A DNA stretch of 64,000 bases from Patescibacteria group bacterium (GTDB lineage Bacteria; Patescibacteriota; Patescibacteriia; PEXW01), in the NCBI GenBank assembly GCA_038063455.1, contig JBBTVB010000005.1:67482-131481 (forward strand), in the 5' to 3' direction. The number at the start of each line of letters is the position of its first letter. The stretch's first letter is position 1. This document shows positions 1,967 through 57,001 of this stretch, one piece after another. The notes under the pieces were generated by a model. The model ran no database searches. It had not been told where the DNA came from and saw only the letters and a list, made by a program, of their open reading frames with translations. The position numbers and the translations under genes are program-made.

Positions 1967-2752
1967 TTATACTCTTTGGCTAAGTATGAATCGGTGGAAA
2001 ACAAATGCATAGGCTAGTGCGGATAGATAGGCCAGCAGCGTTCCTACAACAATACCAAATGCCGGAACGATTAAAAAAAATAGTACCCCGAAAATAACGT
2101 TGCCGATGCTCCCATGCGGCATGGTTTTTGCCACTGAAGAAGTGAAGTCAATGCCATAGCGCCTATCTAAAATTACCAGCGAAGAAGAAAAAGCGGCCGG
2201 GAATCCGGCAAACATACCACCCCAGAGTGGGCCGAGTATTTTGGTAAGCAAGACGACTAGACAGACAATACCCCCAGTGCTTACTATGCGGAGCGCTACC
2301 TCGGTCTTGGTTAGAGTAATGGAAGCAAGCTTCCGGTCGGGAAAATTACGGAGGTAAACGATAGCACAAGTAAAGAAAATTGCTGCCAAGGCGACGGATA
2401 GGGTAATGCTCTTGATTGAGCTGGCCACCAATGGGAGCGTCAGACATGCCCATATCAGTAGGCCGCCAGCCAAAGCAATAATTCTCCCCCACCGACGTAG
2501 GTAAATGAAGCCAACAATAAAGAGGTTATTGGCGGCAATCGAAGCCGGGATGATCGGCATGGCCCGAACAGCCACATCCGTTCCTTGTGACCAGGCAATA
2601 AAAAGGATGCTGATAAGTAAACTTCCGGGTAGACCAATGAGCAAACCCCCAATCCGTGACCCGAACTTTTCTGAAACCCAAATGGCGAAAGCAATATATG
2701 AGCCACCAATCAAGAACGAGAGTAGTAATTTAATAAAAAATTGTATTTCCAT
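1967..2752 (-). CDS. integral membrane protein, unknown function
   Basis: 261-aa ORF made almost entirely of hydrophobic helices (about 8 predicted by eye). Confidence 0.6.
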   Translation of the reverse strand: MEIQFFIKLLLSFLIGGSYIAFAIWVSEKFGSRIGGLLIGLPGSLLISILFIAWSQGTDVAVRAMPIIPASIAANNLFIVGFIYLRRWGRIIALAGGLLIWACLTLPLVASSIKSITLSVALAAIFFTCAIVYLRNFPDRKLASITLTKTEVALRIVSTGGIVCLVVLLTKILGPLWGGMFAGFPAAFSSSLVILDRRYGIDFTSSVAKTMPHGSIGNVIFGVLFFLIVPAFGIVVGTLLAYLSALAYAFVFHRFILSQRV

Positions 2753-2802
2753 AGAACTTGTATAGCGCCAGTAATGTTTGAACCAGTCTCTGAACTATTT
2801 CG

Positions 2803-3672
2803 TCAGGGCATGTGACTTGAATTCAACTTTTTTACTAACTCATTCAAATAGTACTGTGGGGCGGCGTCATTTTTAATAGCTGCCAATAGGTATTGCAAAG
2901 CTGCCGATTTATTGCTTCTTGCTTTTTTTAAAATAAGAGCAAATATCGTACACGGCTCATGTTTACCTGTCTCATGGATGTTCAATGCTTCTACTAATAT
3001 TGGAAGTGATTTCCTCATTTCAAGATTCAAAAAGTTTTTAATAAGATGGCTATCCATGGTAAATAACCTATCTCCATTTTTTTGAACTCTTTTAATGAAA
3101 TCAAAAACTAGTGTTTTTTCAGAAATACCCAATGAGAGCTCTGTTGTCCTTTTAACAATATCCATTGGTTTTCCGGATTTTAATTCTTTGGTAAGGAGTA
3201 AAAGAATGGGTTCATTGGTTGTATTAATAAGATTGTGGTAAAAACCTTCACCATTTTCTTTGACAATAAAAAGGGTCTCTTTAGAAGACAATACTTTTTG
3301 TTTATGGATATTTTTATTACTAACAATACGGGCGTACGGAACACTTTCTTCAGTAACAGCTTCTCTGCTTACCAAGTAGGAAAATGTAAGACAATTCTTT
3401 AATAGGCTAGGGTTTTTCTTCCCCTCTCTCAAAGCCCCGATGACAAGGACCTTGGCTTTTCGAACTTCATCATGAGAACTTAGCTCATGAATATCATTGG
3501 CCGTGTATCCATGCGGCAGAAGGACTATCATCCTCGAAACCAAGGTCTTGCCTTCATCTTTAGCCTTAACAATATAAGAATGAGGACGATCAACTATTTC
3601 AGTTCTTACATCCTGAAAGACTTTTTCCGTTAACTTTTTAACTGCTTCGTGATTTAAAAAATCCTGGGCCAT
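2803..3672 (-). CDS. hypothetical protein on a low-GC islet
   Basis: ORF trimmed to MAQDFLNHEAV (ATG 3672) because the tracked upstream extension overlaps tRNA-Ser. Lys/Asn/Ile-rich and clearly more AT-rich than the flanks. Confidence 0.55.
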   Translation of the reverse strand: MAQDFLNHEAVKKLTEKVFQDVRTEIVDRPHSYIVKAKDEGKTLVSRMIVLLPHGYTANDIHELSSHDEVRKAKVLVIGALREGKKNPSLLKNCLTFSYLVSREAVTEESVPYARIVSNKNIHKQKVLSSKETLFIVKENGEGFYHNLINTTNEPILLLLTKELKSGKPMDIVKRTTELSLGISEKTLVFDFIKRVQKNGDRLFTMDSHLIKNFLNLEMRKSLPILVEALNIHETGKHEPCTIFALILKKARSNKSAALQYLLAAIKNDAAPQYYLNELVKKLNSSHMP

Positions 3673-55139: not shown

Positions 55140-56135
55140 TCAGCGCCACAAGCCTACCTGCTGCACTACCTGCGCCTGCAGTTTTTGAGCATTCCCATGC
55201 GCTAGCAAACCCAGGTAGGACTGTACCGTGGCCTTTTCGGGGTGAGACGCCAGCCGCCGCAACATCCGCTGCTTGGTCGCGGTGCGCAGCACGCGGTGGT
55301 GGGGAAAATGCACCCAGCCCAAAAAATCCACGCCACTGGCCAGCGTCTGGATGCTCACTTTGCGCGGGTGCAGGTCCAAATGCAACTGCGTGTGAAGATA
55401 CTCCTGCATGGCAGGAATACACTGCCGCAAGAATGCTTGATCAGTAGAAAGGACGGCGAAATCATCGGCGTAGCGCAGGTAGTGCGCGGCCTTGAGGCGG
55501 TGCTTCACCAACTGGTCGAAGGGCGTCATGTACACGTTCACGAACAGCTGCGACGTCAGGTTGCCCAGCGGCAGACCGATGCCGGGCGACCAAGCGAAAC
55601 TCTGGATGACTTCCTGGAGCAAAGCCAGAATCCGCGCATCGGGAATCCGCTCAGCGAGCAGTTGCAGCAAGGTTGCATGGTGAATGCTGGCGAAAAACTT
55701 CCGGATATCACACTTGAGCACCCAACAGGTGCGGGTGCTGTTCCGGCTAACCTGGCGGCCAAACGTTTGGAACCGCTGCATGGCCCGGTGCGTCCCCTTG
55801 CCCAGCTGGCAAGAATAGGAATCGGCGATAAAGGTCCGGCTGAAAAACGGGTACAGGACGCGGTAGATGGCGTGGTGCACCAGCCGGTCCCGTACCATCG
55901 CCTTGTGAATGTCCCGCGGCTTCGGGTCGGCAATCCGAAAGTGCGTGTACGGCCCATGGCGGTATGCACCCGCAGCGAGTTCGCGGTGCAAACCTAAAAG
56001 ATTGTCCATGAGCCGATACCCAAAAGTTTGCACGTCGGGTTTGTTACGCTTGCCGGGTAAAAATTCTTGCCACGCCAAAAGCAAATTCTCGACTGACGTG
56101 ATATCCTCTAAAGTATGACGCAATTGGGCCTTCAT
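55140..56135 (-). CDS. DGR reverse transcriptase
   Basis: 331 aa. Motifs IADPKPRDIHKAMVRDRLVHHA, SYSCQLGKGTH, LPLGNLTSQLFVNVYM (DGR-type [I/L]GxxxSQ in motif 4, where group II introns have QGxxxSP) and YLRYADDFAVL. There is no maturase or endonuclease extension. It lies next to a TR/VR pair. Confidence 0.92.
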   Translation of the reverse strand: MKAQLRHTLEDITSVENLLLAWQEFLPGKRNKPDVQTFGYRLMDNLLGLHRELAAGAYRHGPYTHFRIADPKPRDIHKAMVRDRLVHHAIYRVLYPFFSRTFIADSYSCQLGKGTHRAMQRFQTFGRQVSRNSTRTCWVLKCDIRKFFASIHHATLLQLLAERIPDARILALLQEVIQSFAWSPGIGLPLGNLTSQLFVNVYMTPFDQLVKHRLKAAHYLRYADDFAVLSTDQAFLRQCIPAMQEYLHTQLHLDLHPRKVSIQTLASGVDFLGWVHFPHHRVLRTATKQRMLRRLASHPEKATVQSYLGLLAHGNAQKLQAQVVQQVGLWR

Positions 56136-56197: not shown

Positions 56198-56542
56198 TTG
56201 AGACAGGCCTACACGCTCTGGCACGCCACCCTGCAGCACTTCCCTCGTCTTTCGCGCTTCACACTTGGCGCGAAAATTGACGGCCTCTACTGCGATACCT
56301 TGGAACTTTCCCTGCTGGCTGGCTACGCCCAACGTGAACATAAAGCTGCGCTTGTAGACCGGGCAACGAGCAAACTTGATGCGCTCAAATTCTTCTTACA
56401 AGTCGCCTGGGAGTTGCGGGCGGTGGACACCAAAAAGTATAGTCGCTTGAGCGAGCCACTCCTGGAAGTGGGCAAGATGCTCGGCGGGTGGCGTAAACAA
56501 CTCCAACAAAAAAACCCACCCCGCTACGTTGGGGTGGATTAA
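56198..56542 (+). CDS. avd: Avd-like four-helix-bundle DGR accessory protein (start uncertain)
   Basis: 114 aa from TTG 56198. ...QKLRQAYTLWHATLQHFPRLSRFTLGAKIDGLYCDTLELSLLAGYA... and the C-terminal EVGKMLGGWRKQL match my recollection of the Avd / 23S-rRNA-IVS four-helix-bundle family. Divergent from the RT gene. Confidence 0.75.
   Translation: MRQAYTLWHATLQHFPRLSRFTLGAKIDGLYCDTLELSLLAGYAQREHKAALVDRATSKLDALKFFLQVAWELRAVDTKKYSRLSEPLLEVGKMLGGWRKQLQQKNPPRYVGVD
56505..56537 (-). terminator. intrinsic-terminator-like hairpin 17 nt 3' of TR1
   Basis: Minus-sense CCACCCC-AACGUAGC-GGGGUGG followed by GUUUUUUUGUUG. It overlaps the last codons of avd on the other strand. Confidence 0.6.
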
Positions 56543-56554
56543 GTACGTGAAGAG

Positions 56555-56654
56555 ACTTGCGGACGCCGGCAAACCACCAGTTGTCGTTCCACTTGTCGTT
56601 GTTACGGTTGACGTTCACGTTGCGCTCGTCATTCCACCGATTGAACGTGGCGAA
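56555..56654 (-). repeat. DGR template repeat TR1
   Basis: 100 bp matching VR1 with 17 mismatches, all at minus-strand adenines. It encodes FATFNRWNDERNVNVNRNNDKWNDNWWFAGVRK. Confidence 0.9.
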
Positions 56655-56899
56655 GTGTACAGCCTACCGCCTGGTGCACTGCCCATTGAAAAGGTTCTCT
56701 GGGCTGTAGGGTCTTCGGGAGCGTGGTACTCCGCTAGTACACTGTACCAAGTATCTTCAAGATACGAGAATCGTGAAGGATGCCCTAACCAAAGCCGTAG
56801 CCCTGATTACTCTCAAACCTTCAGCGCTCTAGATTTCGATCGCCTGTAACCGTAGCCGCAGGCGGTAGCATCTACTCTCCGCAGGAAGTATAGAAAAAA

Positions 56900-56946
56900 T
56901 CTAAGCAAAAAGAAACGCCGTGCGAGAGACAAGCTCTCGCACGGCG
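56900..56946 (-). terminator. intrinsic terminator of DGR target gene 1
   Basis: Perfect 13-bp stem (56916-56928 / 56934-56946) with loop ACAAG, followed on the minus strand by TTTCTTTTTGC. Confidence 0.75.
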
Positions 56947-57001
56947 GAATCAAAGGGACAAAGGAACCAACAAGTTCACAGTGTCATAGGTTCAAAGGGC
57001 C

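Follow-up and report, generated by a model that had tools for sequence, protein, structure and literature searches.

How is the template of a diversity-generating retroelement (DGR) delivered to its reverse transcriptase (RT) in the Patescibacteria, and which RNA carries it? Two DGR modules in a 64-kb stretch of a Patescibacteria group bacterium (contig JBBTVB010000005.1; the whole stretch is called the window below) raise this question through the noncoding sequence around their template repeats (TRs), which an earlier, sequence-only reading of the same DNA had singled out as conserved between the modules. To our knowledge, RNA requirements have been worked out in detail for no DGR other than the Bordetella phage BPP-1 element, in which the required spacer (Sp) lies 3' of the TR. 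The Patescibacteria form a separate DGR clade and rank with the phyla in which DGRs are most enriched. We propose, with a probability of roughly 0.7, that each TR of the window lies inside a self-contained noncoding RNA (ncRNA) gene in which a structured scaffold equivalent to Sp is placed 5' of the TR. The structured RNA is what is new here; the gene order TR-(avd)-RT of the DGRs of the candidate phyla radiation (CPR) was already known.

The genes and repeats of the two modules, including the variable repeats (VRs), are as follows, with coordinates on the minus strand of the whole window unless marked (+).

57613-57002, minus strand: target gene 1, with VR1 at 57103-57004
56654-56555, minus strand: TR1 core, 100 nucleotides (nt), collinear with VR1
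56198..56542 (+), plus strand: avd (Pfam bAvd, PF22296; E = 4.9e-12; 46.7 bits at a cut-off of 40), antisense to the TR and the RT
56135-55140, minus strand: DGR reverse transcriptase (RVT_1; E = 1.5e-19)
22767-22192, minus strand: target gene 2, with VR2 at 22309-22194 (the whole target-2 unit, including its hairpin, is 22767-22110)
21814-21699, minus strand: TR2 core, 116 nt

Both modules are genuine DGR template/target pairs because the TR/VR differences fall at TR adenines (17 of 17 in the 100-nt core of the first pair and 14 of 15 in the 116-nt core of the second), and by these A-specific differences both have been used. The locus thus combines an A-specific TR/VR pair, a DGR-type RT next to the TR, and Avd. 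Module 1 consists, in order, of target 1, the target hairpin with its T-run, about 240 nt of noncoding sequence, TR1, a hairpin with a U-run, the antisense avd, and the RT. Module 2, 35 kb away, has the same layout without avd or RT on its 3' side, where the next gene is uvrA; the RT adjoins module 1 only. The target 1 protein matches no Pfam family. The RT is identical in protein sequence to one annotated in a Patescibacteria metagenome-assembled genome, and homologues of the RT number in the thousands in the Patescibacteria. For comparison we used 80 loci from species-representative genomes, anchored on RT relatives that are 56-75% identical; in the 54 of them that yielded a repeat pair, the TR/VR mismatches are A-biased.

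The sequence-only reading had described an 83-nt block just 5' of each TR, the 5' untranslated regions (5'UTRs) of the targets, and the segments after the VRs as shared between the modules, and had attributed this to duplicated target-plus-TR units of about 1.2 kb. Shuffled controls bear out the similarity itself. The block (56757-56675 versus 21929-21847) is identical at 60 of 83 positions (72%), and its alignment score of 32 exceeds every shuffle (mean, -20; maximum, -8). The 5'UTRs agree at 56 of 89 positions (63%; score, 11 versus a shuffled maximum of -7) and the post-VR segments at 32 of 52 (62%; score, 8 versus a shuffled maximum of -1). The target proteins are, as had been noticed, scarcely alignable over their N-terminal parts: the corresponding coding DNA is 54% identical with a score of -58, within the shuffled range (mean, -74.6; maximum, -38), and BLASTP of one target against the other gives E = 4.3. 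The similarity might be a mere residue of a recent duplication of target plus TR, the noncoding parts being unconstrained, and the modules do share a lineage-specific 5'UTR sequence without counterpart in distant loci. Under such a scenario, however, coding N-termini at shuffle level would have to be reconciled with flanks that are 72% identical, and the wider family of this RNA bears on the matter still more directly.

A profile of the block matches more than 60 of the 80 loci, on the RT strand in all but one (L017), and each match ends about 10 nt before the TR, the TRs of these loci having been located independently from A-biased repeats. The consensus fold (RNAalifold; alignment A3, 56 sequences) contains three helices. 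P1 has 12 bp, its 5' strand opening the block and its 3' strand ending 3-13 nt before the TR; P2 is a hairpin of highly variable sequence; and P3 is a hairpin interrupted by a G-A/R-A internal loop. The helices are linked by conserved single strands, namely, UAG, GAAUACGAUACA between P2 and P3, and CAGUGG..GAYG, and P2 is followed by (G/A)AAUACGAUACA. Across the 23 pairs of P1-P3, 96.8% of the cells are paired, against 73.5 ± 0.8% in shuffled alignments and 27-60% in slid controls, and double-change cells number 327 versus 89.5 ± 11. None of 500 shuffles reaches the observed values by any measure, either here or in the leader described below. P1, which starts directly after UUG, is 97.5% paired with double changes at 10 of its 12 pairs, and it covaries between the modules of the window themselves (GUACAG/CUGUAC versus GUGCAG/CUGCAC). 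The parts of this domain in the window are as follows.

56747-56657, minus strand: three-helix domain of module 1, containing part of the 83-nt block; the single-sequence fold agrees
56747-56736 with 56668-56657, minus strand: P1 of module 1
56734-56717, minus strand: P2 hairpin of module 1
56716-56705, minus strand: conserved single strand of module 1, GAAGACCCUACA
56704-56681, minus strand: P3 hairpin of module 1, followed by a linker at 56680-56669
21934-21829, minus strand: P1-P3 of module 2 together with the 5' strand of a further helix, P0; P1 is 21919-21908 with 21840-21829
21907-21888, minus strand: P2 of module 2
21887-21876, minus strand: single strand of module 2, GAAUACAAUACA
21875-21853, minus strand: P3 of module 2

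A covariance model (R1) built from 53 other loci, with the window left out, finds exactly two matches in the 64 kb, both of them full length: one in module 1 (56766-56655; 66.3 bits; E = 2.4e-12) and one in module 2 (21938-21827; 80.7 bits; E = 1.7e-15). Among the RT-anchored loci it matches 66 of 80, and the 14 misses are those with less than about 650 nt upstream of the RT. Except in L017, where the unit is inverted, every match is on the strand of the RT with its end at the TR, and only L070 holds a second copy of the domain. An RNA with compensatory changes in these 66 genome loci, drawn from many Patescibacteria lineages, and on metagenome contigs from many samples makes it exceedingly improbable that the flanks are an unconstrained residue of duplication. 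What survives of the proposed duplicated module is the constraint on its flanks; a recent local duplication is too narrow an account, the flanks being a family-wide RNA and not a matter of local paralogy. In Rfam 15 no family matches the RNA (only two tRNAs reach threshold in the window), and a scan of 56450-57000 returned no RT-1 to RT-19 motif, retron, or riboswitch even at E <= 10. Within Rfam 15 and the searchable literature, of which our coverage is partial, we found no description of this RNA.

The second layer of structure is P0, a long-range helix that spans the template.

56759-56748, minus strand: P0 5' strand of module 1, UGAAGAUACUUG, the proposed priming strand
56559-56548, minus strand: P0 3' strand of module 1, CAAGUCUCUUCA, whose first four bases are the last bases of TR1
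21934-21920, minus strand: P0 5' strand of module 2, ACCAUAAGGUACUUG
21703-21690, minus strand: P0 3' strand of module 2, CAAAUUCCUGUGGU

In the family, UGAAGAUACUUG stands just before P1 and CAACUCUCUUCA just after the TR, the first bases of CAACUCUCUUCA being the last bases of the TR. The strands are complementary over 12 positions with two pyrimidine mismatches, and in module 1 the sequences are complementary at 11 of 12. Measured on 5' and 3' flanks that had been aligned independently (A3 with A4), the P0 core of six distal pairs is 84% paired over 56 loci, against 62 ± 1.8% in shuffles (maximum, 68) and 44-56% in slid controls, with 63 double-change cells versus 20 ± 3.6 (maximum, 30). 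Examples of this covariation are AUACGA/UCGUAU, AAUACAG/CUGUAUU, and UGAGGA/UCCUUA, and the two modules of the window differ in the same manner (UGAAGA/UCUUCA in module 1 versus ACCAUAAGG/CCUGUGGU in module 2). At the end of the TR, the base just 5' of CAA is a G in 55 of 55 loci. We also observed that the 5' strand of P0 can form a local hairpin instead (56766-56748, GUAUC-UUGAA-GAUAC; 21935-21920, UACC-AUAA-GGUA; both minus strand), which appears as CUUCA-AAAAAA-UGAAG in many loci and is not evident where the P0 sequence differs; it may represent an alternative state or an intermediate of folding.

The third layer is a leader upstream of P0, and together with a hairpin 3' of the TR it delimits the candidate RNA gene.

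56892-56887, minus strand: -10-like hexamer TATACT, proposed promoter of the TR1 RNA
56879-56760, minus strand: TR1 RNA leader, starting GAGAGUAG, with hairpins L3 at 56864-56841 and L5 at 56809-56786, each capped by a UACG tetraloop (GGCUACGGYU)
56540-56503, minus strand: TR1 3' hairpin and U-run; the hairpin is 56540-56513, with 10 pairs and the tail TTTTTGTTGG (z = -2.2)
22095-22087, minus strand: extended -10-like sequence TGCTAGACT, proposed promoter of the TR2 RNA
22078-21935, minus strand: TR2 RNA leader, starting GACAGUAG, with L3 at 22062-22017 (carrying an inserted hairpin) and L5 at 21982-21960 (z = -2.5)
21684-21650, minus strand: TR2 3' hairpin and U-run; the hairpin is 21684-21657, with 12 pairs, a GAAA loop, and the tail TGTTTTTCAT (z = -3.5)

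The leader is a conserved domain of about 130 nt that starts with G(G/A)NAGUAG and is very constant in length (134 nt in module 1). Its hairpins L3 and L5, both recovered by the single-sequence fold of the TR1 leader, are alike, each with a 9-10-bp stem, a bulge, and a UACG-type tetraloop (consensus GGYUACGGYU). Over 27 pairs in 27 sequences (alignment A6, which left out the leader of module 2), 93.5% of the cells are paired versus 69.2 ± 1.2% in shuffles and 38-50% in slides, with 192 double changes versus 64 ± 7. The supposition that the noncoding flanks are under structural constraint is thus upheld by covariation in three layers and by conservation of the block in related DGR loci. The block itself had been drawn too short: its 83 nt are conserved, and the conserved RNA covers about 240 nt from the promoter-like box to the TR. 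In 35 of 36 loci a TAnnnT box precedes the start of the leader by no more than 24 nt, mostly by 6-8 nt, and it conforms to TGnTAnnnT in 25 of 36; in the window both such boxes are directly 3' of the hairpin and T-run of the target gene.

Downstream of the TR, 55 of 56 flanks contain a hairpin with U-rich sequence after it, as selected by a script for the best such structure, and by eye about 50 of those tabulated are compact, GC-rich, and 7-12 bp long, standing right after a conserved UCUUCAUUU. Beyond CUC/GAG ends their stem sequences are unrelated between loci. A GC-rich hairpin followed immediately by a U-run fits the definition of an intrinsic terminator, and we predict this role. The four hairpin and U-run sites that had been pointed out in the window, i.e., those after the TRs and those of the target genes (56946-56916 and 22139-22110, 13 pairs each, in a scan of the minus strand), are all recovered by a consensus terminator scan. 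The single U.G pair of the TR2 hairpin forms, by its sequence, only in the TR sense, and the TR1 hairpin lies over the 3' end of the antisense avd open reading frame (ORF; 56198..56542 [+]), both as earlier proposed. We observed in addition that the C-terminal tail of Avd is encoded antisense to the U-run and hairpin of the TR RNA (56503-56542; e.g., AAACAAAAC = K-Q-N), and therefore the terminator and the Avd tail constrain each other. Two short inverted repeats, CCACUUUAGUGG and CGACUAAAGUCG, lie directly after the TR2 terminator and before uvrA (21645-21600, minus strand).

Several arrangements fit an independent RNA gene of about 380-430 nt. Module 2 keeps its 3' hairpin without any adjoining avd. 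The avd gene is antisense in all of the loci examined, with the reverse complement of MLGGW conserved right after the hairpin. In L017 (2534-2788), the unit of 5' domain and TR is inverted relative to the RT and therefore cannot be cotranscribed with it. L070 (861-3960) has two tandem target-TR-avd units before one RT: unit A comprises a target (861-1529), its VR (1401-1532), a TR (1843-1974), and then an antisense avd-like ORF (1982-2275), and unit B comprises a target (2573-3238) and a TR (3478-3599). The notion of autonomous, terminator-bounded TR units thus gains promoter-like and terminator-like elements and the hairpin of module 2, the ends of the transcript being predicted.

The same leader position, with a terminator downstream, is also what a cis-regulatory element would occupy. 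The flanks could then be a riboswitch- or attenuator-like leader controlling read-through into the TR, avd, or the RT, and the hairpins could be ordinary gene terminators, one of them bidirectional and shared with the convergent avd, the end of which the TR1 hairpin overlaps, and another the target's own. Terminator-like sites per region are indeed not above shuffles (3 versus 2.1 ± 1.4 and 2 versus 1.7 ± 1.3), a count that also tells against our own proposal, and the weight of the hairpins comes from their conserved position for that reason. The terminator, however, follows the whole TR and not the structured leader, P0 pairs across the entire TR, and in module 2 the hairpin has neither avd nor RT to control. 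None of the Rfam families, riboswitches included, matches the RNA, and an antisense gene separates the RT from the TR, which makes control of read-through into the RT implausible. We consider cis-regulation quite improbable as the main role of these flanks.

What the RNA does is suggested by the phage Sp. According to Handa et al. (bioRxiv 10.1101/2023.10.23.563531), the phage elements are, in order, an Avd-binding stem-loop (Sp3-33; 11 bp, UNCG loop); a priming strand (Sp47-56) that pairs with TR117-129 through 7 canonical and 3 nonstandard pairs, with A56 as the priming nucleotide and G117 as the first template base; a stop duplex (Sp59-70) of 11-12 bp with bases just upstream of the TR; a small stem-loop (Sp71-78) and adenosines making A-minor contacts (Sp79-81); a single-stranded Thumb Ring (Sp82-94); and an RT-binding stem-loop with internal loops (Sp95-139). 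This order is collinear with the leader hairpins, P0, P1, P2-GAA, the single strand, and P3 of the Patescibacteria RNA. The single strand is about 12 nt long, with GAAnACGnUACA in both RNAs; the stop duplex of 11-12 bp is matched by the 12 bp of P1; the template:primer duplex of 10 positions with 3 nonstandard pairs there would correspond to the 12 positions with 2 mismatches here; and the first template base, TR G117 in the phage, would likewise be a G here (the G found in 55/55 loci).

Two short motifs add to the resemblance. Phage Sp79-90 reads GAACACGUUACA, against the Patescibacteria consensus GAAUACGAUACA, and Sp16-25, the apex of the Avd-binding stem-loop, reads GCUACGGCUU, against GGCUACGGCUU in L5 of module 1. 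The degenerate (IUPAC) patterns GAANACGNTACA and GCTACGGCTT, both of them written with the phage sequence in view, have one match each in the 42.5-kb phage genome, at Sp79-90 and Sp16-25 (expected, 0.01 and 0.09), on the correct strand and in the correct order within Sp. Among about 85,000 positions, matrices derived from the Patescibacteria only rank the Thumb Ring site 3rd and the apex site 22nd, and the ordered motif pair ranks 1st by a narrow margin (20.0 versus 19.2).

We propose that the RNA works as follows. On the minus strand, the RNA gene of module 1 would run from about 56879 to 56503 and that of module 2 from about 22078 to 21650; each would start from its own -10-type promoter and end at an intrinsic-terminator hairpin. 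The approximately 240 nt 5' of the TR would do the job of the phage Sp, and RT-Avd would bind this region, with the UACG hairpins L3 and L5 serving as Avd-binding stem-loops. UGAAGAUACUUG would pair with the last bases of the TR and the next 8 nt to form P0 as the template:primer duplex, and P1, closing on the bases just upstream of the TR, would be the stop duplex; P2 with GAA would stand for the stem-loop and its A-minor adenosines, the single strand for the thumb ring, and P3 for the RT-binding stem-loop. P0 would thereby set the last bases of the TR against the UUG|G junction, where a 2'-OH might prime in cis, so that synthesis would start opposite the invariant G before CAA, proceed through the TR, and halt at P1. 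The role of the 3' hairpin and U-run would be only to end and protect the RNA. As the RNA is complete in itself and independent of neighboring genes, the single RT-Avd pair at 55-56.5 kb could serve module 2, 35 kb off, in trans. Of the earlier suggestion of a structured TR RNA recognized by RT and Avd, the structure is supported by covariation, and recognition by the two proteins is the part that we infer.

Several observations weigh against this proposal. The promoter and terminator are consensus matches at the sequence level. The three P0 pairs nearest P1 (U-A, U-A, and G-C) are near-invariant and hence yield no covariation signal, and the last proximal pair reads G.A in 14 of 56 loci. Any assignment of Avd binding to a particular hairpin is a guess. 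P3 falls well short of the RT-binding stem-loop of BPP-1 in length and has no sequence likeness to it, and the phage RNA is missed by the whole-domain covariance model. This last failure is expected if the strands are wired differently, but it leaves the case for homology to the short motifs and their order; we put true homology to the Bordetella Sp, with a circular permutation, at somewhat better than an even chance.

These weaknesses leave room for a different role, in which the conserved 5' RNA would act in stability or processing of the TR RNA or in homing and priming would depend on another element, such as the 3' hairpin and tail, along the lines of the nicked-RNA 3'-OH model (Naorem et al.). 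The pairs beside the priming site that we propose are without covariation, a conserved hairpin with a U-tail stands just 3' of the TR, where the phage has its Avd-binding stem-loop, and the phage RNA escapes the whole-domain model. Against this stand the match of six elements in order and of two motifs to Sp, all on the 5' side, and the end of P1 3-13 nt before the TR, like the phage stop duplex. Moreover, the 3' hairpin stems, with no conserved sequence beyond their CUC/GAG ends, resemble ordinary terminators, and we found no cognate complementarity between the RNA and the post-VR DNA. We therefore hold this alternative to be unlikely, though a more serious contender than cis-regulation, and retain the Sp-equivalent scaffold 5' of the TR as the preferred reading.

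Further elements of the two modules lie outside the RNA gene proper.

57740-57641, minus strand: target-1 promoter-like site and 5'UTR, with TTGACT-17-TATGCT at 57740-57712 and two hairpins in the UTR
57001-56906, minus strand: post-VR1 segment, with a CYTTKG-type array (57001-56950) and then the 13-bp hairpin (56946-56916) and T-run
22191-22110, minus strand: post-VR2 segment, with a repeat array (22191-22143) and then the 13-bp hairpin (22139-22110)
56160-56151, minus strand: run of 10 G between avd and the RT (C10 in the avd sense)

The target mRNAs resemble each other in having a promoter-like site and, in the 5'UTR, two hairpins (57705-57617 and 22845-22771, minus strand; about 150-272 in L082). 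Hairpin 1 occurs in the variants GUGGGC..GCCCUC, GUGAGC..GCUCAC, and GUGGG..CCCAC, and hairpin 2 is UCCGA..UCGGA. The 5'UTR is conserved in the syntenic relative L082 and was not found in more distant loci, and an nhmmer profile of the two UTRs had no match in the 80 loci. Of the claim of shared 5'UTR sequence, the similarity between the modules therefore holds, as a lineage-specific motif confined to both modules and L082.

The shared post-VR segment belongs to a repeat array. The 75 nt after every VR contain a mean of 4.4 CYTTKG-type motifs, spaced 7-8 nt apart, versus 0.8 in shuffled sequence and 0.2 on the other strand. The array, made up of degenerate CCCTTTG, CCTTGG, and CTTAG, lies between the stop codon and the hairpin of the target and is also found after the VR in L002-L078; CCCTT is enriched 21-fold in it. 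That it is a target-site signal is a guess. Pairing of the TR RNA with the DNA after its own VR was considered and rejected, the longest complementarity being 7.5 nt for cognate versus 6.6 ± 1.8 nt for noncognate combinations, at no consistent position.

In 31 of 38 loci the junction of avd and the RT carries 7-13 consecutive G, and in three others it carries (TTGG)10, (CTGG)10, or (GA)17. Read in the direction of avd, the run is one of C and precedes the conserved first helix of Avd by a few codons. In 12 of 34 loci a start codon farther upstream shares the avd frame through the C-run (e.g., MNPPPAGNLSIIQHL); in the other 22, the window included, it does not. Here the avd frame is open from about 56145, the ATG at 56115 is out of frame across C10, and a run of 11 or 8 C would join that ATG to avd and give an Avd of about 142 amino acids. 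Between the window and L082, identity over the intergenic stretch is 84-96%, which exceeds that of the flanking coding DNA. The junction repeat looks like a phase-variable ON/OFF switch for the DGR, with a putative start of Avd. The ON fraction was tried as proof that the C-run is coding and discarded, 12 of 34 being at chance level. We found no paper in the searchable literature that ties DGRs to simple-repeat phase variation.

Metagenome contigs, scanned by exact pattern, gave at least 120 matches to the RNA, 77 of those listed having enough flank. Among the latter, an RT lies 0.3-1.5 kb downstream in 70 of 77. Orphan modules as a common arrangement were rejected on this count: only 7 of the 77 listed lack a nearby RT, and most of these look truncated or decayed, so that complete unlinked modules like module 2 are rare, a further point against our proposal. 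Four contigs (L087, L116, L184, and L194) have the 5' domain and TR with the 3' parts, avd, or the RT truncated or missing and appear to hold decaying DGRs. A complete Patescibacteria-type unit, with the 5' RNA domain, a TR, and an RT that is 60% identical, was also observed at 3313-3565 of L073, a 3.4-Mb contig titled Pirellulales bacterium and assigned to the Planctomycetes, a sign of possible horizontal transfer beyond the CPR.

With predicted ends, a predicted priming nucleotide, and helices that can be tested, a defined RNA of about 380-430 nt would open the DGRs of the Patescibacteria to reconstitution, and a second DGR RNA that is wired differently would help in asking which RNA features are essential. 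If the proposal is true, DGR-based mutagenesis tools could conveniently be built on a self-contained template cartridge acting in trans. The covariance model is, furthermore, a sensitive marker for TRs, orphans included, in fragmentary metagenomes.

Set beside known systems, the RNA shares with that of BPP-1 (avd 3' end-TR-Sp; Handa et al. 2018 and the preprint) the use of an RT and Avd and A-specific mutagenesis. The layout differs, as the sequence-only reading had anticipated from the conserved region 5' of the TR: Sp lies 3' of the TR in the phage, whereas here the structured nontemplate region is 5', with only about 50 nt after the TR. The Patescibacteria RNA needs an extra closing helix (the P0 core) and a linker from P3 to P1, and it has two candidate Avd-type hairpins instead of one in loci with the full leader of about 130 nt. 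The phage makes an avd-TR-brt transcript, whereas a promoter and terminator of its own are predicted for the RNA here and avd is antisense.

Among the conserved structured RNAs by RT genes known as RT-1 to RT-19, Weinberg et al. 2017 proposed the RT-10 motif, a structured region between the TR and brt in BPP-1, as a part of the DGR; it is similar in kind to the RNA described here and differs in being 3' of the TR, i.e., the phage Sp itself. Wu et al. 2018 found the architecture B3, TR-(avd)-RT, in 90% of their CPR set, which agrees with our loci in gene order and orientation; B3 is a gene order only, and the text as searched makes no mention of secondary structure, of sequence upstream of the TR, or of multiple or two TRs. 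Handa et al. examined 40 nt upstream and 100 nt downstream of the TR in 278 DGRs, and the CPR stem-loops and duplexes were called "similar" to those of the phage. Such a span would miss the leader, P0, and most of P1-P3, and it may already have counted the 3' hairpin.

Retron RNAs have a closing helix (a1/a2), recognition stem-loops, and a 3' template that is copied inwards from the helix. The RNA described here has the same arrangement, with P0 as the closing helix, the proposed priming G on the 5' side, and the template 3', and priming from a 2'-OH at a guanosine is cited for retrons. The likeness to msr-msd is one of topology alone: here the RT is of the DGR clade and accompanied by Avd, the TR is matched by a VR, and no sequence, model, or Rfam comparison gives a retron match. 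It is about an even bet, in our view, that the DGRs of the Patescibacteria employ a permuted, retron-like RNA as an independent ncRNA gene, with the template as a trans-acting cartridge for several unlinked modules and possibly a simple-repeat switch, and that the retron-like order, with priming strand and recognition stem-loops ahead of the template, may be the older or commoner layout, compared with the order known from the Bordetella phage.

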